From Escherichia coli (GTDB lineage Bacteria > Pseudomonadota > Gammaproteobacteria > Enterobacterales > Enterobacteriaceae): a stretch of DNA of 64,000 nucleotides. Below the pieces are notes generated by a model. It was given only the letters and a program-made list of their open reading frames with translations, had not been told where the DNA came from and did no database searches. The translations under genes were made by a program, and so were the position numbers. The stretch lies in the NCBI RefSeq assembly GCF_048403405.1, contig NZ_CP183129.1; one strand, given 5' to 3'. Shown here one piece after another: positions 1-18,290 of the stretch (position 1 is the first letter of the stretch; each line of letters opens with the position of its first letter).

Positions 1-3000
1 TTGCCCGTTCAGTGTCACCGTAATAGTGGTGCCCGCTGGCTGATTGCTGGTGCCGGAAATTTGCAGATCCGCGCCTTTTTCGGTGGCGTTAATTATGTCA
101 TCGGTAGCGATGGTGTTAATGCCAATGGTTGGCGCGGTAAGGTTAACGGTGACCGTGTGCGTTTCGCTGTCGCTATTACCTGCCGCATCGGTAACGGTCG
201 CCATCACGGTTTGCGGGCCGCTACCCAGCGCCGTGACATCCGCCGCCGGAACGCCGACGCTCCAGTTGCCGGAGGCATCCAGCGTCGTGGTGTAGGTTTT
301 ACTGTTTAGCGTGACGGTGACGACATCCCCCGCTTCTCCGCCAGTGCTGGAACCGGAAATCACCAGCGCCTGCCCGTGTTCGGCGGCGTTAATAATATCG
401 TCGCCCGCAATGGTGTTGATGGTAAGTACCGGAACGGTGAGATCCACCGCCAGATTATGCGTGGTGCTCGCCGGGTTGCCCGCTTTGTCATTGACCGTGG
501 CGGTCAGGGTGTGGCTGCCATCGGTCAATGCCTCAAGATCTGCCGCCGGAATATTAATACTCCAGCTACCGTCGGCCTGTACCGTTGCCTGATACGTCTG
601 CACGGTCGGGCTATTGAGCGTTATCGTAACAATCTGCCCTGCCTCGGCAGTGGTGCTGCCGCTCACCGTCACACCCGCATCGGCTTCGCTGGCGTTGACG
701 ATATTGTCGCTGGCAACGGTATTGATAATGATGGTCGGGGCACTGCTATCGACGCTGTAGTTATGCACCGCCGAGGCGCTATTGCCATTAATATTGCTGA
801 CGCTGGCCTGCGTGGAGGCGCTGCCATCGGTTAATAACGCTAAATCGGCAGCGGGAACGGTGGCACTCCAGCTACCATCGCTCGCCACGCTGGCAGTGTA
901 ATTTTTCCCGCCAAAGGTGACGGTGACCGTTTGCCCGGCTTCTACATTTGTGGTGGTGCCGGAAAGGGTTAAATCAGCGCCTTTTTCTGCGCCGTTAATC
1001 ACATCGTCCGTGGCGATAGTGTTGATGGTAATAGCCGCCGGAGTGAGATCCACCGTTACCGGATGCGTAATGCTTATCGGATTTCCGGCGCTACTTTCCC
1101 CGGACACGGCAATATTAATCGTCCCCGCAGGCCAGGCGCTAACCTGCGCCGCCGTGACGCCCACGCTCCAGCTACCATCGGCCTGCACCGCAGTGGTGTA
1201 TTCCACATTATTAATTGTGACGGTAAGCGGCGTGCCTTCAGCCAGCCCCGAGCTGCTGCCGCTGACCACCAGCGCCTGCCCGTGCTCGATGATATTGACC
1301 ACATCATCGCCTGCCACCGTATCGATCCGCAGACCGGGCAGATTGGCGTCGATGGTGATATCCCGCGTGCCGCTGCCGGTGTTGCCGTTTTGATTGGTGA
1401 CCGAGGCGCTCACCGTTAAATCGCCATTACCCAGCGCCTGAATATCTGCCGCCGGAACGCTCACGCTCCAGGTGAGATTGCTGCCCACCGTCGCCGTATA
1501 AGTATTACCGCCCAACGTAATAGTTACCGTGTCGCCATCTTCCGCTCCAGTAACCTGCCCGCTGATGGTTTGCGCGACGCCCGCTTCGGCGGCGTTAATA
1601 ATATCGTCGGTTGCCACCGGGTTAATGGTCACGCCGGGCAGCGCGCTGTCAACCAGCACGTTATGGCTGGCGGTGTTGCTGTTGCCGATACTGCTGGTTA
1701 CCGCCGCCGTTACCGTGTAGTTGGCCTGGCCCAGTGCGGTTACCGCCGATGCCGGAACGGTGACGCTCCAGTTGCCGGAGGCGTCGGTCGTGGTGGTGTA
1801 ATTTTGCCCGTTCAGCGTCACGGTGATGGCGGTATTAACAGGCTGATCGCTGGTGCCGGTAATCTGGACATCGGTTCCTTTTTCGCTGGCGTTAATCACA
1901 TCATCGCCCGCAATGCTGTTAATGCCGATAAGGGGCGCTGCGGTATTGACCGTGACGGTCAATGACTGGCTGCCGCTGTTTCCTGCGCGGTCGGTTACCG
2001 AGACGCTGACAGGATAACTGCCGTCCACCAGTCCGCTGACAACGGAAGCCGGAACACCCAGACTCCAGTTGCCGGAACCATCCACCACCGTGGTGTAATC
2101 GGAATTATTTAACGTAACGGTGACAATATCGCCCGCCTGCGCGCCAGTAACCGTGCCACTGATGATTTGCGCCTGGGTGTGTTCCGGCGTGTTGATGACG
2201 TTATCGGTCGCCACCGGATTAATGGTCACCACCGGAGGCGTGGCATCGACCAGCGCCACCCGTGAAACGCTGGTCGGGTTACCGGCGACATCGTTCACGC
2301 TGGCGGTGACCGTGGCGTTGCCGTCAGCCAGTGCGTCAACATTGGCGGCGGGAACGGTCACGCTCCAGGTGCCGTCGGACTGCACGATGCCCTGATAGGT
2401 TTGCCCATTCAACGTAACGGTCACCGTCTGCCCCGGCTGAGCGTCGGTGGTGCCGGTGATGGGCAAATCCTGCCCGCTTTCGGCGGCGTTAATGATGTTA
2501 TCAGCGGTCAGTGGATCGATGCTCAACGCCGGGGCCTGGCTGTCGACGGTAATGGTGCGGGAGGTGTTGCCGGTATTGCCGCTGAGATCCGTCACAGAAG
2601 CGGTAATCGCCACCGCGCCGTCAGGCAGATTTCCCATCGCGGCGGCAGGTACCGTCAGACTCCAGGAGCCATCAGCCTGCACGGTAGTGGTAAAACTCTG
2701 TCCAGCCAGGGTTACTGTGACGGTTTGTCCTGTCTCGGCCTGTTGAGTGCTACCGGTAAGGGTCAGTGGCGCACCTTTTTCTGCGCCACTGATAATGTCA
2801 TCGCCGGAGACGGTGTTAATGGTGATCAACGGAGAAACACCGACCAGCGTGATTGCTCGAGACGCCGCGCCAGTATTTCCTGCAGCATCTGTCACGGTGA
2901 CGAAAATCGTATTGGCTCCGCGATCCAGCGTGCGGGTTACCGCCGGGTCCAGCGCCACATTCCAGCTGCCATCTGCCAGCACGATGCCCGTCAGGACATG

Positions 3001-3740
3001 AGTGCCCAATTTCACCGTTACCGTATCGCCAGGAGAAGCACCGCTGACTTGTCCGGAGATGATCTGCGCGACGGCCTGCTCGGCATTATTAAGAATATCG
3101 TCGCCCGCCACGGTGTTAACGCTGACCACGGGTGCTGAGGTGTCTACCGTGAAATTCGCGCTGTGGCTGGTGGTGTTTCCTGCCCGATCGCTGACACTGG
3201 CATTGACAGCATAATTACCCTCCGCCAGTGCCTGGACTTCCGTGGCAGGCAGCGTCACTTGCCAGGTTCCGTCGCTACCGACGGTTGCTGTATGGCTTTT
3301 CCCGTTGACGGTCAGTGTTACGGTTTGCCCCGCTTCTGCATTCGACGTGCCGCTCAGTACCAGCGCGACGTTATGTTCCGCAGCACTGATGATGTTGTCC
3401 TGAGCGATGGTGTTGATGGCAAGCGTTGGCGGTTGGGTATCGACCGTTAGCAGCTGCGCGCCGGTGACCGTATTGCCTGTGGCGTCTTTCCCACTGACCA
3501 GCACCGCCTGATTCCCTTCGCCTAACGCCTGTGCATCGGCGGTCGGCACCTGCACGCTCCAGGCACCGTTAGCGCCTACGCTGGTGGTGTAGGTTTTGCC
3601 GTTTAGCGTAACGGTGAGTTCTGTTCCCTGCGCCAGATGGCTACTGGTGCCAGAAAGCGTAAACCCGGCGGCCTGTTCGCTGGCGTTAATAATGTTATCG
3701 CCTGCGGTGGTGGCAACCTGCACGCTGGCCTGACTATTGT
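1..3740 (-). repeat. Tandem array of ~300-bp coding repeats (Ig-like domains) inside the adhesin gene; repeats diverged (~40-60% aa identity by eye)
   Basis: Recurring ~100-aa motif in the hand translation; array start approximate. Confidence 0.7.
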
Positions 3741-4548
3741 CGATGGTTAACGTTATCGAACCGGCGTCAGTGATGGTACTGCCGACAATTTGCACCACTG
3801 ACCAGGTATGTTCACCTGCACTTTGCGTGGGTAACGAGACACTCCAGTGACCGTTGTTGTCTACCTGAGTACTGGCAATAGTATTGCCGTTACTGTCTTT
3901 AATCTGAATAGTCGCCCCCGCCTGCCCGCTGCCGCTAAAGGTTGGCGTGGTGTCATCGGTGATGTCATTGGTGGCGAGAATGCCGCGCTGATCGCCCTGA
4001 TTATCGGTAACTAAGAATGATGGTGTGGCGTTGCCAGGCTCAGCGGGTGGCGTAGGGTTATTAATCACTTCCGTTTTCGAGTCGCCATCACCACCGCTTG
4101 CCAGCAGTGCACCAAGCGCACCACCACCTACCGCCGCCCCCGCCAGCCAACCCCACGGGAAGGCGCTGGTCTGAGCAACGGTATCAAGAAATGGCGCAAT
4201 GCTTTCAATCGCGGTGGTCTGGGCAGTCAGTTCTACGGGGGCTAATCCACCCGCAGCAGTATCGGCAAAGGTGACGTGGGTGAGCTGTTGTCCATCGGCA
4301 AACACCAGTTCCGATTGTTCAGCGGTATTCGCCGCTTGCAGGAAATAACCGTTGCAACGGATCACCGTGCCGTCCTGCATATAGATCAGCAGGTCATTTC
4401 CTTCACGGACGTAACGCGAAACGGCAGAGGCCTGAGCATGAACCTGCACCACGGAAGGCTCATAAATAACAACCGTGACGTCGCCAGGATTAATCAGCGT
4501 TTGTTTGACGGATGTTTTACGCGAAATAACATCAATAATCAGGCTCAT
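1..4548 (-). CDS. Giant surface adhesin / type I secretion substrate, N-terminal ~1515 codons (3' end beyond window start); BapA-like N-terminal domain followed by tandem Ig-like domains
   Basis: Minus-strand frame open from ATG at 4546-4548 (AGGAAT RBS 6 nt upstream) to position 1 with no stop. Hand translation: MSLIIDVISRKTSVKQTLINPGDVTVVIYEP..., then 13 or more ~100-aa repeats (TINTIAGDDIINAAE..ISGTS..GQTVTVTLNG.TYTATV.ADGSWSV.VPAAD..AL.DG..TV.ASVTD.AGN). Plus-strand track ORFs here are antisense artefacts. Confidence 0.85.
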   Translation of the reverse strand, partial: MSLIIDVISRKTSVKQTLINPGDVTVVIYEPSVVQVHAQASAVSRYVREGNDLLIYMQDGTVIRCNGYFLQAANTAEQSELVFADGQQLTHVTFADTAAGGLAPVELTAQTTAIESIAPFLDTVAQTSAFPWGWLAGAAVGGGALGALLASGGDGDSKTEVINNPTPPAEPGNATPSFLVTDNQGDQRGILATNDITDDTTPTFSGSGQAGATIQIKDSNGNTIASTQVDNNGHWSVSLPTQSAGEHTWSVVQIVGSTITDAGSITLTIDNSQASVQVATTAGDNIINASEQAAGFTLSGTSSHLAQGTELTVTLNGKTYTTSVGANGAWSVQVPTADAQALGEGNQAVLVSGKDATGNTVTGAQLLTVDTQPPTLAINTIAQDNIISAAEHNVALVLSGTSNAEAGQTVTLTVNGKSHTATVGSDGTWQVTLPATEVQALAEGNYAVNASVSDRAGNTTSHSANFTVDTSAPVVSVNTVAGDDILNNAEQAVAQIISGQVSGASPGDTVTVKLGTHVLTGIVLADGSWNVALDPAVTRTLDRGANTIFVTVTDAAGNTGAASRAITLVGVSPLITINTVSGDDIISGAEKGAPLTLTGSTQQAETGQTVTVTLAGQSFTTTVQADGSWSLTVPAAAMGNLPDGAVAITASVTDLSGNTGNTSRTITVDSQAPALSIDPLTADNIINAAESGQDLPITGTTDAQPGQTVTVTLNGQTYQGIVQSDGTWSVTVPAANVDALADGNATVTASVNDVAGNPTSVSRVALVDATPPVVTINPVATDNVINTPEHTQAQIISGTVTGAQAGDIVTVTLNNSDYTTVVDGSGNWSLGVPASVVSGLVDGSYPVSVSVTDRAGNSGSQSLTVTVNTAAPLIGINSIAGDDVINASEKGTDVQITGTSDQPVNTAITVTLNGQNYTTTTDASGNWSVTVPASAVTALGQANYTVTAAVTSSIGNSNTASHNVLVDSALPGVTINPVATDDIINAAEAGVAQTISGQVTGAEDGDTVTITLGGNTYTATVGSNLTWSVSVPAADIQALGNGDLTVSASVTNQNGNTGSGTRDITIDANLPGLRIDTVAGDDVVNIIEHGQALVVSGSSSGLAEGTPLTVTINNVEYTTAVQADGSWSVGVTAAQVSAWPAGTINIAVSGESSAGNPISITHPVTVDLTPAAITINTIATDDVINGAEKGADLTLSGTTTNVEAGQTVTVTFGGKNYTASVASDGSWSATVPAADLALLTDGSASTQASVSNINGNSASAVHNYSVDSSAPTIIINTVASDNIVNASEADAGVTVSGSTTAEAGQIVTITLNSPTVQTYQATVQADGSWSINIPAADLEALTDGSHTLTATVNDKAGNPASTTHNLAVDLTVPVLTINTIAGDDIINAAEHGQALVISGSSTGGEAGDVVTVTLNSKTYTTTLDASGNWSVGVPAADVTALGSGPQTVMATVTDAAGNSDSETHTVTVNLTAPTIGINTIATDDIINATEKGADLQISGTSNQPAGTTITVTLNGQ

Positions 4549-4656
4549 AATGGCATTCCTGATAAATGGCGCATATCCTTAGCGAGTCCATTTATCTAAA
4601 TAAGACAAAGGTAATCACTTAACAACGAGGCATACCTGATATTAATAATGGCAGGA

Positions 4657-6012
4657 TTATTTCAAGTCGGGTAAGTCGTTGTATAAGCCCTGTTTAATTC
4701 CCGCTAATGGAATAAGGTTATTCACCGCAGCGGCATAATTTACGGCGGCGACCCAGCCATCATAATTGGCATTTATTTCAGCCGATTGCGCCTGAAAGAC
4801 ATCTTGCTCGACGGTTAATAGATCATTCAGACTGCGTTTGCCCAATTTATATTCATTTTGGTACACATCTCGCGTTTTGTGCGCACTTTCGGATTGTGCT
4901 AAACCGGCTTCTTCGCGACCCCGTGCGCCTGTCCAGTTGGCATATGCCACAGACGCTCGTTGCAGCACATCCAGTTTTGCCTGTTCGACCTGCGAGGCAG
5001 AGATTTTTTGTTGCCCTTCGGCCTGTTGCACCTGGGCAGAAACCGCGCCGCCCTGATACAGCGGCGCGTTAACGTTCAGTTGTAGCTGATCATCCCAATA
5101 CGAGCGGTCGCTGGTCTGGTAGCGCGTTTTGCCCCCCTGAATACTCAGCGTTGGCCAGTATTGCGCTTTCGTTTTTTCCACGCCGTACTGTGCTGACTGG
5201 CGTAAGTTTTCTGCCGCCAGCACCAGCGGGATGGACTGGTAATCAATATTTTTCAGCGATACCGGCTGCTCGGCTAATTCAGCAGGTGGCGCGGCTATCG
5301 CCTCCGGCTGTACGCCAGTGAGCACCGCCAGTTGCGCTTTGGCGCTTGCCATCTGCGCCTGATATTGCTCCAGCGTTGAGCGCATTCCGGCAATGCGCGT
5401 CTGGGCCTGTAATTCATCCGACGACGAGTTCAGGCCAGCGTTAGCACGCAATGCTGCCATGTTGTAGACGTTTTCCAGCGAGTGAATATTGCGTTGAGCC
5501 GCATAGCACAAAGCCTGATAACGACTGACTTCCATATAGGCAGTTGCCGTTTTCTCTGCAACATCGGTTAATGTTGCCATCAATTTAAAGCGGTAGCTGT
5601 CACGGGCGGCAGTTTGCAGTTTGATATCGTTGTTAGTTTTACCAAAGTCATACACCAGCTGTGTCAGGGTTATGCCATACGAAACGTTGTTATCAAGCCT
5701 GCCACTGGAGTCCGTTTGTCGGGACGGTCCCGCATTGCCGGTTAATCCAACGTGCGGATACCAGGCACTTTTGGCTTCATCAATTTGCGCTTCGCCAATA
5801 CCTATCTGCGCCGCCTGTTGAGTGACGTCGGGATTTCGCGCAAAGGCGCGTAATATACTTTCCTGTAAAGATAATTGGGCAACTGGCGTTACCGCTGGGG
5901 CATTCGCCCATTGTGGCAGCGGTGCAGCAATTGCAGCTTCTCCCATCACCATAAAACTTATTAAAAAAATAAACCCATTATTTTTACGGCTTTTAAACTG
6001 GAATCGCGCCAT
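4657..6012 (-). CDS. TolC-family outer-membrane efflux/secretion protein, 451 aa, with N-terminal signal peptide; likely the outer-membrane component for the adjacent adhesin
   Basis: Complete ORF; basic n-region then hydrophobic FIFLISFMVMG and AIA-A signal-peptidase-like site; TolC/OprM-like composition; 108 bp upstream of the adhesin start on the same strand. Confidence 0.75.
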   Translation of the reverse strand: MARFQFKSRKNNGFIFLISFMVMGEAAIAAPLPQWANAPAVTPVAQLSLQESILRAFARNPDVTQQAAQIGIGEAQIDEAKSAWYPHVGLTGNAGPSRQTDSSGRLDNNVSYGITLTQLVYDFGKTNNDIKLQTAARDSYRFKLMATLTDVAEKTATAYMEVSRYQALCYAAQRNIHSLENVYNMAALRANAGLNSSSDELQAQTRIAGMRSTLEQYQAQMASAKAQLAVLTGVQPEAIAAPPAELAEQPVSLKNIDYQSIPLVLAAENLRQSAQYGVEKTKAQYWPTLSIQGGKTRYQTSDRSYWDDQLQLNVNAPLYQGGAVSAQVQQAEGQQKISASQVEQAKLDVLQRASVAYANWTGARGREEAGLAQSESAHKTRDVYQNEYKLGKRSLNDLLTVEQDVFQAQSAEINANYDGWVAAVNYAAAVNNLIPLAGIKQGLYNDLPDLK

Positions 6013-6300
6013 AGATAAGTCACTTCCTTCCAGGTCATTATTTTAACTGGTTTTTATAACCAGTCTCATTTTATTAAGAAGGGTAATAACTTGTGCATCT
6101 CTTTTGTCGATCATTGATATTGGCAAAGAAATGCAGCTAAAAAGCTTATACGTTATTTATTTAGAATACACTACGACTTTTAGATTACCATCATACACAT
6201 TAAGAATAATCCACGGTAATAAGTGATTAGCATCACAGATTTATCGCGTATATATCATTTTTTTGTGACTTATTTATTAAAGGAATAAGAAAGGTAATTT

Positions 6301-6338
6301 GAATTAAAGACAAAGGCGCAGTACAGGCTGTACTGCGC
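6301..6338 (-). terminator. Intrinsic terminator downstream of ybaT
   Basis: Inverted repeat GCGCAGTACAG/CTGTACTGCGC at 6316-6338, 12 nt past the ybaT stop, followed on the minus strand by a U-rich tract. Confidence 0.6.
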
Positions 6339-6349
6339 ACAGAGAGGTG

Positions 6350-7642
6350 TTATACGGTTTTATTGCGCTTCATGACCATTGCCACAATAAGGCTGAGTAA
6401 GATTGCACCAATAATCCATATCAACGCACGGCTGCCCTGGGACCACAGGCTGTAGATAAAGCCAACGATCACCAACAACATCACCAACGTACCAACGATA
6501 AGAATCGGCAACGAGGCGTGAATATCATGACGCAGGCGGATCGCCACCACAAACACCGCCAGATAGCAGATCAAAAAGGTGGCGCTGGCAACGCTGGCGA
6601 GTGAGCCTAAATTCAGCGCCGCCGTCATCAGCATAATCAGCACCACGACAATGATGTTGCCCCAGGTACTCTGCCGCCACAGGGATTTATTCATTAGCTT
6701 CGGCAGTTCGCGTTCGCTGCCCATGTTGTCCATGATGTTAAACACGGCGAACAGGTTCGCGTTGATGGCTGAAGCCGTCGCCAGTAAAGCGCCGATGACG
6801 ACGATCACATAACCCACATGCCCGAGCAGCGGAGAAGCTGCCTGCGCTACGGCGGTATCGGCATATTTTTCTAACTCTAATGCCGATACATCGCTAAGCA
6901 AAACCAGCGCCAGCGAGATATAAAGCAACGTGGTAACGCCAATCGCCACCAGAAACGCCCGTGGCATAATGACCTGCGGATCTTTCACTTTATCCGCCGC
7001 GTTCGCCATCATGCCAAAGCCCGCATAGGCAAGGAAGGTTATCCCGATACAGGAGAAGAACGCACCGGAGCTGGGGGGCGCAGAGACGGAAATATGCGCC
7101 GGTTGCAGCGACCAGACACCTGCAATGATCAGCAATAACAGGATCATCATTTTAATGCCGACGAGGATCACTTCCAGCCGCCCTACCGCATGGTTGCTTA
7201 AGGAGTTGAAAAGCGTCATCACCGCAATGATCCCCAACGCGTAGAGCAATATAAGGTGCTCCTCCTGACTGCCTTCATGCAAAAACTGCACGGCATAAGC
7301 GCCAAAAGCACGGGCGACCATGGCGATGCTCACCGCCAGCGTCAACAGGTACAATAACGAGAGTGCCAGCGAAAAGACGCCGTTGCCTAATCCGCGACGA
7401 AAGAAGTCGATAATACCGCCATTGCTGGGATAGCTCGCCCCTAGGCGCGCATAGGCATAACCGGAAAACATCGCCACAATACCGCCAAAAGCAAAGGCGA
7501 CCCAGGTCGAGGCTTCCATTAGCAACGCAGCCTGCCCCAGCAGCGCGAAGATCCCCGCCCCCACCATTGCCCCAATACCGATGGAAACGACGTTCCATAG
7601 ACCGAGGGGTTTGTTATCGTTATTACCTTCCGTGTTCATCAT
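6350..7642 (-). CDS. ybaT: APC-family amino acid transporter YbaT (430 aa)
   Basis: Complete ORF; polytopic membrane protein sequence; 2 nt downstream of glsA. Confidence 0.9.
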   Translation of the reverse strand: MMNTEGNNDNKPLGLWNVVSIGIGAMVGAGIFALLGQAALLMEASTWVAFAFGGIVAMFSGYAYARLGASYPSNGGIIDFFRRGLGNGVFSLALSLLYLLTLAVSIAMVARAFGAYAVQFLHEGSQEEHLILLYALGIIAVMTLFNSLSNHAVGRLEVILVGIKMMILLLLIIAGVWSLQPAHISVSAPPSSGAFFSCIGITFLAYAGFGMMANAADKVKDPQVIMPRAFLVAIGVTTLLYISLALVLLSDVSALELEKYADTAVAQAASPLLGHVGYVIVVIGALLATASAINANLFAVFNIMDNMGSERELPKLMNKSLWRQSTWGNIIVVVLIMLMTAALNLGSLASVASATFLICYLAVFVVAIRLRHDIHASLPILIVGTLVMLLVIVGFIYSLWSQGSRALIWIIGAILLSLIVAMVMKRNKTV

Positions 7643-7644
7643 GA

Positions 7645-8577
7645 TCAGCCCTTAAACACGTTATAGCCGAGTTGCTTAGCGACCGATGCCACCATTTTTT
7701 GACCGCGAACACTGTTACCTTCTTCGTCCAGCGGTGGTGAGAACGCGGCAATTCCCATCACGCCAGGGACGACCGCCAGAATACCGCCACCTACACCGCT
7801 TTTGCCCGGTAAACCAACGCGATACGCCCAGTCACCGGAGCGACCATACAGCCCTTCCATCATCATTTCAGCCAGAATGTACGGCACGTTGTCGGCCTGA
7901 AGAACGCGTTTATGCGTCAGCGGATTCACACCCCCCGCCGCCAGCGTCGCGCCAAGCGTTGCCAGTTCAACAGTATTGATGAGCGTGGAGCACTGACGGG
8001 TGTACACGTCACAGGCTTCCATTGCATCACAATAGAGATATCCGGCGGAGTACAGCAGCCAGGCAATGGCCCGGTTATGGAAGTTGGTTGTTTGTTCCGA
8101 CTGGTTTACTTCGTCAGAGAGCGCTACCTGCTCACCAGCCAGTTGTTGTTGGATATGTAAAATTCGCTGCCAGCGTTGTTCGGCATTTTCAGCGTTAATC
8201 AGGCTGGTGGTGGCAATAGCGCCAGCATTTACCAGTGGCGACAGCGGTTTACCGCCATGCAACTCTAAGGCGATAACTGAGTTAAAGGGCAATCCGGTCG
8301 GGTCAGCGCCAATTTTGTCCTGTACCGCCTGCGGGCCGACATCTTCTAACGCAAGGGCTAACGTACAGACTTTCGAGATGGATTCCAGCGCAAAGCGGTA
8401 ATCACTATCACCCGCGCGATAGATGTTGCCATCGCAGGTCACAATAGCCACTGCTGCCAGTTGACCAGGTACATTCGCCAGAAAGGGAATGTAGTCGGCA
8501 TTTTGTCCGCCGTTAAGTGAGTGAAATTGGGTGTAAGCCTGATCCACTGCCTGCTGTAATTTGTTTGCATCTAACAT
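7645..8577 (-). CDS. glsA: Glutaminase 1 (310 aa)
   Basis: Complete ORF; sequence recognisable as YbaS/GlsA glutaminase; forms glsA-ybaT operon. Confidence 0.92.
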   Translation of the reverse strand: MLDANKLQQAVDQAYTQFHSLNGGQNADYIPFLANVPGQLAAVAIVTCDGNIYRAGDSDYRFALESISKVCTLALALEDVGPQAVQDKIGADPTGLPFNSVIALELHGGKPLSPLVNAGAIATTSLINAENAEQRWQRILHIQQQLAGEQVALSDEVNQSEQTTNFHNRAIAWLLYSAGYLYCDAMEACDVYTRQCSTLINTVELATLGATLAAGGVNPLTHKRVLQADNVPYILAEMMMEGLYGRSGDWAYRVGLPGKSGVGGGILAVVPGVMGIAAFSPPLDEEGNSVRGQKMVASVAKQLGYNVFKG

Positions 8578-8768
8578 CTTTTGTTAACTCCTTTTTATAG
8601 ATGCGGGAGGTAATTCCTCACCCCGGTGCCGATTTTCAGGCATCCTGATTTAACTTAGCACCCGCAACTTAACTACAGGAAAACAAAGAGATAAATGTCT
8701 AATCCTGATGCAAATCGAGCCGATTTTTTAATCTTTACGGACTTTTACCCGCCTGGTTTATTAATTTC

Positions 8769-8799
8769 TTGACCTTCCCCTTGCTGGAAGGTTTAACCT
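8769..8799 (+). promoter_or_regulatory. copA promoter with CueR (MerR-type) operator: -35 TTGACC, 19-bp spacer containing dyad CCTTCC-N7-GGAAGG
   Basis: TTGACCTTCCCCTTGCTGGAAGGTTTAACCT read directly 41-71 nt upstream of the copA ATG. Confidence 0.8.
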
Positions 8800-8839
8800 T
8801 TATCACAGCCAGTCAAAACTGTCTTAAAAGGAGTGTTTT

Positions 8840-9051
8840 ATGTCACAAACTATCGACCTGACCCTGGACGGCCTGTCCTGCGGTCACTGCGTTAAACGCG
8901 TGAAAGAAAGTCTCGAACAGCGCCCGGATGTTGAGCAGGCGGATGTGTCTGTCACTGAAGCGCACGTTACCGGGACTGCCAGTGCAGAACAGCTGATCGA
9001 AACCATCAAACAAGCGGGTTATGACGCATCTGTAAGCCACCCAAAGGCTAA
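8840..9051 (+). CDS. copA: CopA(Z) copper chaperone, 70 aa, produced by programmed -1 ribosomal frameshift within copA
   Basis: Slippery heptamer C-CCA-AAG at 9040-9046 (codons 68-69); the -1 frame reads CCC AAA GGC TAA, ending ...SHPKG. Confidence 0.75.
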
Positions 9052-16613: not shown

Positions 16614-18290
16614 ATGCATCACGCCACCCCGCTTATCACCACCATTGTTGGCGGCCTTGTGCTCGCCTTTATCCTCGGCATGCTGGCCAATAAACTACGT
16701 ATTTCTCCTCTGGTGGGATATCTGTTAGCGGGTGTGCTGGCAGGACCATTCACTCCGGGCTTTGTTGCCGATACCAAGCTTGCGCCGGAACTGGCTGAAC
16801 TGGGCGTCATTCTGTTGATGTTTGGCGTCGGTTTGCACTTTTCGCTGAAGGATTTGATGGCGGTAAAGGCCATCGCCATTCCCGGTGCGATCGCCCAGAT
16901 AGCCGTGGCGACGCTGCTGGGTATGGCGCTCTCCGCCGTGCTGGGCTGGTCGTTAATGACCGGTATCGTGTTCGGCTTATGCCTTTCCACCGCCAGTACC
17001 GTGGTGTTACTGCGCGCACTTGAAGAACGGCAATTAATAGACAGTCAGCGTGGGCAAATCGCCATCGGTTGGTTGATTGTGGAAGACCTGGTAATGGTTC
17101 TGACGCTGGTGTTGCTGCCCGCAGTGGCAGGAATGATGGAACAAGGCGATGTGGGCTTTGCCACTCTTGCTGTCGATATGGGGATCACCATCGGCAAGGT
17201 GATCGCATTTATCGCCATTATGATGCTGGTAGGTCGCCGTCTGGTGCCGTGGATTATGGCACGCAGCGCAGCAACCGGTTCCCGTGAGCTGTTTACCCTG
17301 TCGGTGCTGGCGCTGGCGTTAGGGATTGCCTTTGGTGCGGTGGAGCTGTTTGATGTCTCCTTTGCACTCGGTGCGTTCTTTGCCGGGATGGTACTGAACG
17401 AGTCTGAACTGAGTCACCGTGCCGCCCACGATACGCTGCCATTGCGCGACGCGTTTGCGGTGCTGTTTTTTGTCTCCGTCGGGATGTTGTTTGATCCGTT
17501 AATTCTGATTCAGCAACCGCTGGCAGTGCTGGCGACGCTGGCGATTATTCTGTTTGGTAAGTCGTTAGCCGCGTTTTTCCTGGTGCGACTGTTTGGTCAC
17601 TCCCAACGTACGGCATTAACTATCGCCGCCAGCCTGGCGCAAATTGGTGAGTTCGCGTTTATCCTGGCGGGACTGGGCATGGCGCTGGATCTGTTGCCGC
17701 AAGCCGGGCAGAACCTGGTACTGGCAGGGGCGATTTTGTCGATTATGCTCAACCCGGTCCTGTTTGCGCTGCTGGAGAAATATCTGGCGAAGACCGAAAC
17801 GCTGGAAGAGCAGACGCTGGAAGAGGCTATCGAAGAAGAGAAGCAGATCCCAGTGGATATTTGCAACCATGCGCTACTGGTAGGTTACGGTCGTGTAGGC
17901 AGCCTGCTGGGGGAGAAATTGCTCGCCTCTGATATTCCTTTAGTGGTGATTGAGACGTCACGAACCCGTGTTGATGAACTGCGAGAGCGCGGGGTCCGCG
18001 CAGTATTGGGCAATGCGGCGAACGAAGAAATTATGCAACTGGCGCATCTGGAATGTGCTAAATGGCTGATCCTGACGATTCCCAACGGTTATGAAGCGGG
18101 CGAGATTGTGGCATCTGCCCGCGCGAAAAATCCGGATATTGAGATTATTGCCCGCGCCCATTATGACGATGAAGTGGCGTATATCACCGAACGTGGGGCA
18201 AATCAGGTAGTGATGGGTGAGCGTGAAATTGCTCGTACTATGCTGGAACTGCTAGAAACGCCACCGGCGGGTGAGGTGGTGACGGGGTAA
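16614..18290 (+). CDS. ybaL: CPA2-family cation:proton antiporter YbaL (558 aa)
   Basis: Complete ORF; membrane domain plus C-terminal Rossmann/TrkA-like domain. Confidence 0.9.
   Translation: MHHATPLITTIVGGLVLAFILGMLANKLRISPLVGYLLAGVLAGPFTPGFVADTKLAPELAELGVILLMFGVGLHFSLKDLMAVKAIAIPGAIAQIAVATLLGMALSAVLGWSLMTGIVFGLCLSTASTVVLLRALEERQLIDSQRGQIAIGWLIVEDLVMVLTLVLLPAVAGMMEQGDVGFATLAVDMGITIGKVIAFIAIMMLVGRRLVPWIMARSAATGSRELFTLSVLALALGIAFGAVELFDVSFALGAFFAGMVLNESELSHRAAHDTLPLRDAFAVLFFVSVGMLFDPLILIQQPLAVLATLAIILFGKSLAAFFLVRLFGHSQRTALTIAASLAQIGEFAFILAGLGMALDLLPQAGQNLVLAGAILSIMLNPVLFALLEKYLAKTETLEEQTLEEAIEEEKQIPVDICNHALLVGYGRVGSLLGEKLLASDIPLVVIETSRTRVDELRERGVRAVLGNAANEEIMQLAHLECAKWLILTIPNGYEAGEIVASARAKNPDIEIIARAHYDDEVAYITERGANQVVMGEREIARTMLELLETPPAGEVVTG

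Follow-up and report, generated by a model that had tools for sequence, protein, structure and literature searches.

The tandem repeats at the start of a 64,000-nucleotide Escherichia coli window are the beginning of the Ig-like stalk of SiiEA, an already known giant surface adhesin

The closest described system is the RTX adhesin SiiEA of E. coli, carried on O-island 28 (OI-28; z0609/z0615, 'RtxA28/RtxB28'; ECUMN_0527; Ec042-0527-0530). This is apparently the same gene as the one described here, at the same chromosomal site, as judged by position and gene content. O157:H7 and O145:H28 strains from which the apparently orthologous island has been deleted adhere less well and colonise mice less, a Ca2+-responsive effect (PMC12758282). 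Region II of the Marinomonas primoryensis adhesin MpIBP/MpAFP (4P99, 4KDV) is built of homologous Ca_tandemer units of ~100-104 aa with a DDxINAxE junction motif. MpIBP contains ~120 identical repeats, each subunit is ~45 Å long, and Ca2+ bound at the inter-repeat linkers rigidifies the rod (PMC4083281). Salmonella BapA and the BapA/Bap/LapF prefix family have in common with SiiEA, at the level of family models, a BapA prefix-like N-terminus, tandem Ig-like repeats and a dedicated T1SS; NCBI keeps a separate 'exception' model for SiiEA, apart from BapA. Salmonella SiiE (SPI-4), the source of the gene name, is a giant T1SS-secreted, Ca2+-binding adhesin of tandem BIg domains. Pseudomonas LapA, an RTX adhesin whose retention is under LapG/LapD control, likewise has a retention module at its N-terminus and an extender, and repeats of its type (6XI3) are matched in SiiEA.

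The window is a stretch of 64,000 nucleotides from E. coli contig NZ_CP183129.1 (assembly GCF_048403405.1). A preliminary description had placed at least 13 tandem Ig-like coding repeats of an adhesin at its beginning. These repeats are the start of the Ig-like stalk of SiiEA. The gene begins with an ATG at window position 4548, which is also the start annotated in RefSeq, and the frame runs off the window at position 1. Frame errors had been named as a possible source of a false pattern; the 1,516 codons contain no stop, and their product is 100% identical to the N-terminus of WP_114281893.1 (strain 4621; RefSeq name siiEA). The NCBIfam model adhesin_SiiEA (NF047714, a 229-aa N-terminal model with a curated cutoff of 425 bits) scores 505.8 bits, residues 1-230 aligning with model positions 1-229. 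In the strain 4621 allele, the full frame is intact and measures 20,778 nt, or 6,925 residues, which corresponds to a protein of ~700 kDa. The window holds 22% of the gene, and the array continues past its edge. The two genes concerned are the following.

Positions 1 to 4548, minus strand: 5' part of siiEA, codons 1-1516 of 6925 (open frame without stops; RefSeq identity; NCBIfam adhesin_SiiEA).
Positions 4657 to 6012, minus strand: gene of a TolC-family outer-membrane protein, the first of the operon (Pfam OEP, 162 bits; RefSeq annotation).

The operon order is tolC-like, siiEA, ABC, HlyD, and the flanking genes are ybaT and cueR. The ABC (ABC_membrane + ABC_tran) and HlyD genes lie directly downstream of siiEA. 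Pfam confirmed the OEP, ABC_membrane + ABC_tran and HlyD assignments; the adjacent dedicated T1SS (OMP, ABC, MFP) is present and intact in all three genes. The operon and its ybaT/cueR flanks are the same as those of the OI-28 adhesin, and by position and gene content the locus appears to be O-island 28 of O157:H7. No siiA/siiB-like accessory genes are annotated between ybaT and cueR; the locus consists of the genes for the OMP, the adhesin, the ABC protein and the MFP alone. A recent horizontal origin of siiEA from a high-GC donor was considered, as the gene has 60.5% GC, and rejected: its GC3 of 0.65-0.67 matches that of ybaT and copA, and the excess GC results from a Thr/Ala/Val/Gly-rich composition.

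A unit HMM, built from the units of the window itself, resolves the array into directly adjoining units, the first at aa 278-377, the next at 378-476 and the last complete one at 1377-1476, with scores of 92-128 bits.

Positions 3418 to 3717, minus strand: canonical unit R1 (aa 278-377; unit HMM 94.8 bits).
Positions 3121 to 3417, minus strand: unit R2 (aa 378-476; unit HMM 125.0 bits).
Positions 2821 to 3120, minus strand: unit R3 (aa 477-576; unit HMM 110.8 bits; allele mapping).
Positions 2521 to 2820, minus strand: unit R4 (aa 577-676; unit HMM), weakly phase 3 of the super-repeat.
Positions 2224 to 2520, minus strand: unit R5 (aa 677-775; unit HMM), weakly phase 4 of the super-repeat.
Positions 1924 to 2223, minus strand: unit R6 (aa 776-875; unit HMM), phase 5 of the super-repeat.
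Positions 121 to 1923, minus strand: units R7-R12 (aa 876-1476; each 114-128 bits by unit HMM), which form the first complete super-repeat of six units, with internal unit boundaries at 1627, 1327, 1027, 727 and 421.
Positions 1 to 120, minus strand: unit R13 (aa 1477-1516 of 1477-1575; unit HMM), truncated by the window edge.

The count of at least 13 repeats is thus borne out as 12 complete canonical units and a thirteenth, partial one. Unit length had been estimated at 96-103 aa and is 99-102 aa. The start of the array had been put at about residue 270 (window 3740); the first unit in fact begins 8 residues further on, at aa 278 (window 3717). The proposed motif agrees with the computed consensus, INTVAGDDIINAxExGxALTISG...TVTVTLNGxxYTxTVxAxGxWSVxVPAAD...ASVxDxAGN, in which D7, E14, G23 and W53 are invariant and N11 is invariant or nearly so. 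Self-comparison, suggested as a check, gave a periodicity far above chance. When the protein is shifted against itself by 100, 199 and 299 aa, identity reaches 0.25-0.31, whereas the background is 0.089 and none of 200 shuffles exceeded 0.136; DNA identity peaks at lags of 300, 597 and 897 (0.41-0.43 vs. 0.26). A seeded repeat search recovered 12 copies of a conserved 50-nt segment, spaced 297-306 nt apart. Tandem Repeats Finder, run on window 1-4600, missed the ~300-nt array, whose copies are too unlike for it (<70%).

The Ig-like identity of the units is supported by three lines that agree: family models, homology to solved extenders and a confident beta-sandwich model. In the window protein, NCBIfam Ca_tandemer covers 14 stretches (1,156 bits, cutoff 50), Pfam Big_13 covers 12 stretches and NCBIfam Ig_like_ice scores 515 bits. 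By sequence, the units are homologous to the solved extenders 4P99 (E=6e-57), 5IRB and 6XI3. The AF2 model of units R8-R9 is all-beta with a pLDDT of 96.6, in line with the fold that had been expected of a single unit, and its top Foldseek matches are 4P99, 5IRB, 6XI3, 6XI1 and SiiE 2YN3. MpIBP 4P99 ranks first, with 33% identity, and its DDxxNxxE motif aligns with that of the SiiEA units. The resemblance to SiiE is more distant: 2YN3 comes after the MpIBP and Lap extenders, at rank seven (23% identity, TM 0.38), and is absent from the sequence-level PDB matches of the units. SiiE differs from SiiEA in domain family and also in its N-terminus, the BapA prefix being that of SiiEA. The name siiEA reflects resemblance to Salmonella SiiE, not orthology.

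While the repeats of MpIBP are identical, the 52 canonical units of SiiEA are diverged and organized in a six-unit super-repeat. Pairwise identity among the window units is 27-58% at the amino-acid level (mean 42.5%) and 42-62% at the nucleotide level; across all 52 units, the mean amino-acid identity is 47%. Neighbouring units are ~44% identical, with no identical or near-identical adjacent pair, and exact DNA repeats reach at most 44 nt in the whole gene and 25 nt among the window units. Fourfold-degenerate third positions are identical at 0.51 between paralogous units of the same phase, 0.43 between units of different phase and 0.87 when the orthologous units of two alleles are compared. 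Synonymous sites between paralogous units are near saturation, and this divergence sustains the earlier argument against a recent expansion.

The six-unit order is visible as amino-acid identities of 0.59-0.66 at offsets of 6, 12, 18, 24 and 30 units, vs. 0.44 at the others. Compared with the units that lie 6, 12, 18 and more places further downstream, R7-R12 each show 55-88% identity. At the DNA level, repeat D6 (1-195 vs. 1804-1998; 1,803-nt spacing, 71% identity) pairs R13 and the last part of R12 with R7 and the last part of R6. The array is very probably ancient and arose by duplication of a six-unit block in which each position has stayed distinct; its unit number now changes only rarely. 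Six extender types are each still recognisable despite the near-saturated synonymous sites. Neither this super-repeat nor the 22% share of the gene had been recognised in the preliminary description.

Among eight alleles examined, the canonical units number 46, 50, 51, 52 or 55, so repeat number does vary between strains, as had been anticipated. The 46-unit allele is without exactly R23-R28, a single six-unit block, and the 51-unit O157 allele is without R25. The six-unit breakpoint was placed by per-unit mapping and 30-nt identity profiles; BLAST gave no placement of it, as its alignments extend through paralogous blocks. In both of these in-register differences, the junction lies at a unit start within the conserved DNA segment (identical runs of 25 nt and 12 nt). 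In the 55-unit alleles, three additional units separate R3 from R4; most of the variation falls outside the window.

Five unit counts in eight alleles, and breakpoints that both fall in the conserved segment, could be read as the mark of a contingency locus, where repeats would be gained and lost so often that size or antigenicity would change rapidly, both among strains and inside one strain. This is highly improbable. The comparison across strains used the E. coli complete-genome collection: of 60 genomes sampled evenly among 959 carriers, 29, at 94-100% identity, retain the locus length of the 52-unit form to within 8 nt. The low identity of adjacent units, the shortness of the longest exact repeats and the failure of Tandem Repeats Finder to detect an array also speak against it. 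Moreover, the variant array lengths each appear fixed in their own lineage; WP_001550748.1, for instance, occurs unchanged in a Dutch and a UK isolate. The variation in unit number is modest and lineage-specific.

Some alleles are interrupted, and one of the interruptions maps to the window.

Positions 163 to 165, minus strand: codon 1462, which reads GAA; O157:H7 EC4115 has TAG at the orthologous position, which splits the gene there (allele comparison).

The EC4115 gene is a pseudogene of 51 units, with this stop and a frameshift; the predicted O157:H7 products measure 1461, 4448 and 833 aa. PGAP also annotates siiEA as a pseudogene in ETEC6334 and in E500002 and 7CC, whose 55-unit alleles carry frameshifts that, in these CM-prefixed WGS chromosome records, may be sequencing errors; the gene is deleted in GDSC2227PM, and frameshifts were noted in O157 and EAEC 042 (PMC2808357). 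As the gene is disrupted in several lineages, it is dispensable in many backgrounds. The locus could be a decaying remnant, whose repeats no longer yield a working protein in this strain either. However, this is very unlikely: here, the 52-unit allele has its 20,778-nt frame and all three T1SS genes intact, and an intact frame so large cannot persist without selection. The amino-acid identity of paralogous units is, furthermore, far above their synonymous-site identity.

Ahead of the canonical units, three regions can be distinguished.

Positions 4183 to 4548, minus strand: BapA prefix-like domain (aa 1-~122), presumed cell-surface retention module (Pfam BapA_N, NCBIfam biofilm_BapA_N).
Positions 4033 to 4182, minus strand: low-confidence linker (aa 123-172; pLDDT <50) with the conserved hydrophobic Gly/Ala segment PWGWLAGAAVGGGALGALLA.
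Positions 3718 to 4023, minus strand: first Ig-like domain, of Big_6 type and unlike the canonical units (aa 176-277; Pfam Big_6; AF2 block pLDDT 82-93).

The prefix domain is recognised by Pfam BapA_N (PF22783; 66.3 bits, cutoff 27) and by NCBIfam biofilm_BapA_N (NF033677; 66.2 bits, cutoff 35). The AF2 model of the N-terminal part is moderate (mean pLDDT 70, with aa 123-172 below 50); the prefix domain is beta-rich in it, with block pLDDT values of 63-88. Foldseek returned weak matches from the Ig part (best E=2.8e-4, TM 0.30), and no solved retention domain was linked to the model; a retention role is suggested by analogy with the BapA prefix family. In the linker, W134, A136, G142, G143 and G146-L149 are invariant among 15 Enterobacterales sequences, and W132 and G133 are nearly so. 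Pfam Big_6 occupies aa 176-256, just upstream of the canonical units, with its best stretch at 195-252. Homologues of the N-terminal module, 51-59% identical, occur in Enterobacter, Pseudocitrobacter, Pluralibacter and Apirhabdus; the search, made with the N-terminal 277 aa, yielded only assembly fragments of <500 aa and was used solely as an alignment for modelling. A LapG cleavage site at 'TAAG' (aa 97-100) was considered and rejected, since it is found in E. coli sequences only and the homologues read AGEASG. The di-alanine motif of LapA-type release by LapG is not conserved among the homologues, and neither lapG nor lapD is annotated at the siiEA locus.

Beyond the window, the 52 canonical units are followed by variant Ig domains (Big_13 variants), FG-GAP repeats (FG-GAP_3 x3) and RTX nonapeptides. 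In strain 4621, whose full-length gene is identical, the RTX match (PF00353; 24.1 bits, cutoff 23) falls at positions 1328-1362 within the last 1,485 residues, and the C-terminus reads ...LLANHQLMVV. Like MpIBP, SiiEA has the architecture of a T1SS RTX adhesin, with an N-terminal anchor, an extender, a ligand-binding region and RTX repeats; the distal domains differ, as SiiEA has FG-GAP repeats and is without the ice-binding domain of MpIBP.

Window 1-3717 (minus strand) is thus very probably the proximal extender, or stalk, of a 6,925-residue RTX-type fibrillar adhesin that would act as follows. SiiEA would be exported by the surrounding T1SS (TolC-like OMP upstream, ABC permease/ATPase and HlyD adaptor downstream), C-terminus first, as directed by the C-terminal RTX repeat region and a predicted secretion signal. 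Extracellular Ca2+, held by the acidic residues of the DDxxNxxE motif at the unit junctions, would then allow each ~100-residue unit to fold as an Ig-like beta-sandwich; this expectation comes from the conserved motif and the biophysics of 4P99. The 52 canonical units and ~6 variant Ig domains would stiffen into a rod of roughly 0.25-0.3 µm, at ~4.5 nm per unit. This rod would keep the distal FG-GAP and variant-Ig region, the putative ligand-binding part, away from the cell, and the BapA-prefix domain would tether the protein at the outer-membrane channel.

The 2025 study of OI-28 reports a partial rescue of adherence and colonisation by truncated constructs that retain just two Ig-like domains (PMC12758282). 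On this view, the repeats would themselves be adhesive and not purely spacing, each unit or super-repeat contributing to a multivalent binding of host ligands in place of a passive Ca2+-stiffened spacer. The phase-specific sequences, kept despite saturated synonymous sites, point in the same direction, as their conservation suggests selection on more than the bare fold. Adhesive units are nevertheless unlikely: their closest solved homologues, 4P99, 6XI3 and 6XI1, are extenders with no reported ligand; the separate distal FG-GAP and variant-Ig region occupies the usual ligand-binding position; and the conserved positions belong to the core (W, G) or to the DDxxNxxE junction and form no surface patches. 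A spacing stalk, as proposed above, is the preferred reading.

The repeat finding is correct but ordinary, and it leaves the understanding of RTX adhesins unchanged; its practical value lies in annotation and in the reading of recent literature. Because the adhesin gene, 20.8 kb long, extends past the edge of the window, the features in 1-4548 represent only 22% of the real object. This diverged array changes rarely, and its in-register changes concern whole units or a six-unit block at the conserved junction segment. It is rather doubtful that the super-repeat is functional and not a fossil of block duplication. If it were, it could impose a higher-order period on the stalk, such as a defined twist or a lateral association surface; the enforced dissimilarity of neighbouring domains could prevent misfolding during Ca2+-driven folding outside the cell; and stalk length could be adjusted in steps of six units (~27 nm). 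The 6,925-aa ExPEC-type allele, which is intact, and the interrupted O157:H7 allele are one gene, and this bears on the reading of the "two RTX proteins" of OI-28: an N-terminal fragment ending at codon 1461 lacks the C-terminal T1SS signal.

One long frame is open on the reverse strand of window 1-4800 in translation, with an AGGA 9 nt upstream of its start codon. Several complete E. coli genomes are 100% identical to window 3600-9000, and the gene is annotated there as siiEA, 'BapA-related adhesin SiiEA'. Together with the operon member that precedes it, it is placed as follows:

siiEA, 5' part: minus strand, from the ATG at window 4548 past window position 1; 1,516 codons, no stop
tolC-like OMP gene: window 4657-6012; Pfam OEP; operon member before siiEA

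The range in which the preliminary description had seen its repeats, window 1-3740, corresponds to residues 270-1516 of the minus-strand siiEA. In strain 4621, a complete genome, this gene measures 20,778 nt (fetched locus L001, 172-20949, minus strand) and encodes 6,925 aa (WP_114281893.1). The 1,516 residues of the window are identical to the N-terminus of that protein; hence, the window holds 22% of siiEA. The NCBIfam SiiEA model scores 505.8 bits on the N-terminus (cutoff 425) and Ca_tandemer 1,156 bits on the repeats, while Pfam matches BapA_N and Big_13 in the window-encoded protein. The operon, inserted between ybaT and cueR, is ordered tolC-like OMP, siiEA, type I secretion system (T1SS) ABC permease/ATPase and HlyD adaptor, the transport genes being identified by Pfam (OEP, ABC_membrane and ABC_tran, HlyD). 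siiEA is an annotated gene of a well-understood class and the finding is already known; experiments have been done on its apparent counterpart in O157:H7. In carrier strains, a second adhesin-type gene set adjoins the island: a small cluster outside the window and beyond cueR, between cueR and ybbJ (L002 4566-6987), contains three hypothetical genes alongside one for a YadA-family autotransporter adhesin of 338 aa.

The canonical Ig-like units, numbered from the N-terminal side, were delimited by an HMM trained on ten of the window's own units:

Big_6 Ig domain, of a type distinct from the canonical units: aa 176-256, minus strand (Pfam); precedes R1
R1-R4: aa 278-377, 378-476, 477-576, 577-676, minus strand (unit HMM)
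R5-R8: aa 677-775, 776-875, 876-974, 975-1074, minus strand (unit HMM)
R9-R12: aa 1075-1174, 1175-1274, 1275-1376, 1377-1476, minus strand (unit HMM)
R13: begins at aa 1477, cut by the window edge, minus strand (unit HMM)

Tandem Ig-like repeats of ~100 aa are confirmed by this HMM and by protein self-identity, which reaches 0.25-0.31 at lags of 100, 199 and 299 residues (background 0.089; shuffle maximum 0.136, n = 200). R1-R12 are contiguous and 99-102 aa long. The earlier start and count, at least 13 repeats, needed small corrections: the first canonical unit begins at aa 278 (window 3717), and 12 complete units and a truncated one are present. The motif read from the sequence is reproduced by the consensus of 34 two-unit segments, in which D7, E14, G23 and W53 are invariant. 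Clear in the protein, the periodicity is weak at the DNA level: no ~300-nt array was reported by TRF, and a seeded repeat search recovered a conserved 50-nt segment in 12 copies, spaced by 297-306 nt.

The repeat region (window 1-3717) lacks cysteine codons, and the invariant W53 is the only tryptophan of each unit. Its composition (15% Thr, 13% Ala, 11% Val) accounts for the 59% GC of this region, and its GC3 of 0.67 is like that of the neighbouring core genes, so a compositional sign of recent transfer is absent.

Across the full protein, mean unit identity is 0.66, 0.65, 0.62, 0.62 and 0.59 at offsets of 6, 12, 18, 24 and 30 units, and ~0.44 at all other offsets. This reveals a higher-order period missing from the preliminary description: a super-repeat of six units (~598 aa, ~1.8 kb), represented in the window by R7-R12 (121-1923). 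The pattern is clear from R7 on; R4-R6 weakly match phases 3-5 (positions within the super-repeat), and R1-R3 are unclassifiable. Within the window, units share 27-58% aa identity (mean 42.5%) and 42-62% nt identity; exact DNA repeats reach at most 25 nt there and 44 nt across siiEA as a whole. At fourfold-degenerate third positions, identity is 0.51 between same-phase units and 0.43 between different-phase units, against 0.34 expected from composition only and 0.87 between orthologous units of two alleles. It follows that the block duplications are far older than the divergence seen among E. coli alleles, and that selection has conserved the protein sequence of the units. The low unit identity and the fourfold-site comparison both support the earlier view that the array did not expand recently. 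R12-R15 and R18-R21 (83-86% nt identity) form a younger segment, with only R12 of the former inside the window.

The island was found in 959 of 5,426 complete E. coli genomes. Length was sampled in 60 records, evenly spaced down the match ranking for a 22.4-kb query. The whole query is covered in one piece by 29 of them (94-100% identity, spans of 22,392-22,400 nt), so these records have the same unit number. Variation among strains, as had been anticipated, is evident among the alleles inspected, with 46, 50, 51, 52 and 55 units:

Unit number in inspected siiEA alleles
4621 (the window's allele): 52 units; intact, 6,925 aa; reference
98203: 52 units; intact, 6,819 aa; variant-Ig region at the C-terminal side shorter by 318 nt
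RIVM_C039227 and 190693 (both encoding WP_001550748.1): 46 units; intact, 6,324 aa; one super-repeat absent, precisely R23-R28
O157:H7 EC4115: 51 units; pseudogene; lacks R25; TAG at codon 1462, frameshift near nt 17,650
E500002 and 7CC: 55 units; flagged frameshifted; three additional units between R3 and R4, a position within the window-equivalent region
ETEC6334: 50 units; pseudogene; out-of-frame net loss of 799 nt in the R8-R11 region
GDSC2227PM: none; deletion that begins in the prefix domain and ends in the ABC gene

Of the three extra units in the 55-unit alleles, the middle one clearly belongs to phase 1 (0.68 identity); the frameshifts in these two records may or may not be real. Two in-register differences, those of the 46- and 51-unit alleles, were examined (unpolarised). 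In both, the register switches where a unit begins, within the conserved segment that encodes INTxAxDDxINxAE, with identical runs of 25 nt (R23/R29) and 12 nt (R25/R26) at the switch points. Change in unit number is rare and lineage-fixed, not a rapid size variation. The clean deletion in GDSC2227PM (L008 2369-4463) takes essentially the whole adhesin and keeps the tolC-like and HlyD genes.

The full protein carries 52 canonical units (aa 278-5466, unit HMM), followed up to the C-terminus by six Big_13-variant Ig domains, three FG-GAP repeats and RTX nonapeptides. Sequence comparison shows the units to be homologous to 4P99 (E = 6e-57), an extender stabilised by Ca2+ that forms region II of the ice-binding adhesin of Marinomonas primoryensis, and to match 5IRB, 6XI3 and 4KDV as well. 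An AlphaFold2 model of R8-R9, built on an alignment of the protein's own two-unit segments, agrees with an Ig-like fold: it is all-beta (pLDDT 96.6), and its top adhesin matches in the PDB (Foldseek) are 4P99, 5IRB, 6XI3, 6XI1 and Salmonella SiiE 2YN3. In 4P99, whose subunit is ~45 Å long, acidic residues at the inter-repeat linkers bind Ca2+ and the chain becomes a rigid rod (PMC4083281). The DDxxNxxE junction motif is common to 4P99 and the SiiEA units, where it is nearly invariant. From this homology and the common motif, the window repeats can be read as the portion nearest the cell of a stalk stiffened by Ca2+. Taking ~4.5 nm for each unit, a length of ~55 nm would result for the 12.4 units within the window and ~0.25-0.3 µm for the whole extender, which would project a distal binding region (FG-GAP and variant-Ig). 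Retention at the outer-membrane channel would fall to the BapA-prefix domain at the N-terminus. The N-terminal model is of only moderate confidence, and searching with its fold was uninformative.

A hydrophobic Gly/Ala-rich segment, PWGWLAGAAVGGGALGALLA (window ~4090-4160, aa ~130-152), separates the BapA-prefix domain from the first Ig domain. It is almost invariant in Enterobacter, Pseudocitrobacter, Pluralibacter and Apirhabdus homologues and of very low AlphaFold confidence; it may be lodged in the outer-membrane channel or be membrane-interacting. A di-alanine 'TAAG' (window 4249-4260, aa 97-100) resembles a LapG cleavage site, and its spacing from the N-terminus is the one expected. As a LapG site it was rejected: it is unconserved, homologues reading AGEASG, and the locus has no lapG or lapD.

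At window 163-165 (codon 1462), GAA stands where the orthologous codon of O157:H7 EC4115 is TAG. The EC4115 siiEA (L005 8858-29007), a PGAP pseudogene with ORFs of 1461, 4448 and 833 aa, is one interrupted gene. The EAEC 042 genome paper (2010) described this T1SS/RTX locus as syntenic between 042 and O157:H7, with the substrate gene frameshifted in both (PMC2808357). According to a December 2025 paper, O-island 28 (OI-28) comprises tolC28, rtxA28/z0609, rtxB28/z0615, hlyB28 and hlyD28, is activated by RstA, responds to Ca2+ and is needed by O157:H7 and O145:H28 for adherence and mouse colonisation; z0609 and z0615 are treated there as two RTX adhesins, and a pseudogene is never mentioned (PMC12758282). 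We infer that the EC4115 ORFs correspond to z0609/z0615; an N-terminal siiEA fragment would lack the C-terminal T1SS signal. A 2025-26 preprint on RTX adhesins, which does not treat E. coli, describes two themes as common: isoforms that differ in extender number, and sets of dissimilar extenders that are repeated. The details added here, of modest specialist interest, are the six-unit super-repeat, an allele differing by exactly one block, and EC4115 siiEA as one interrupted gene.
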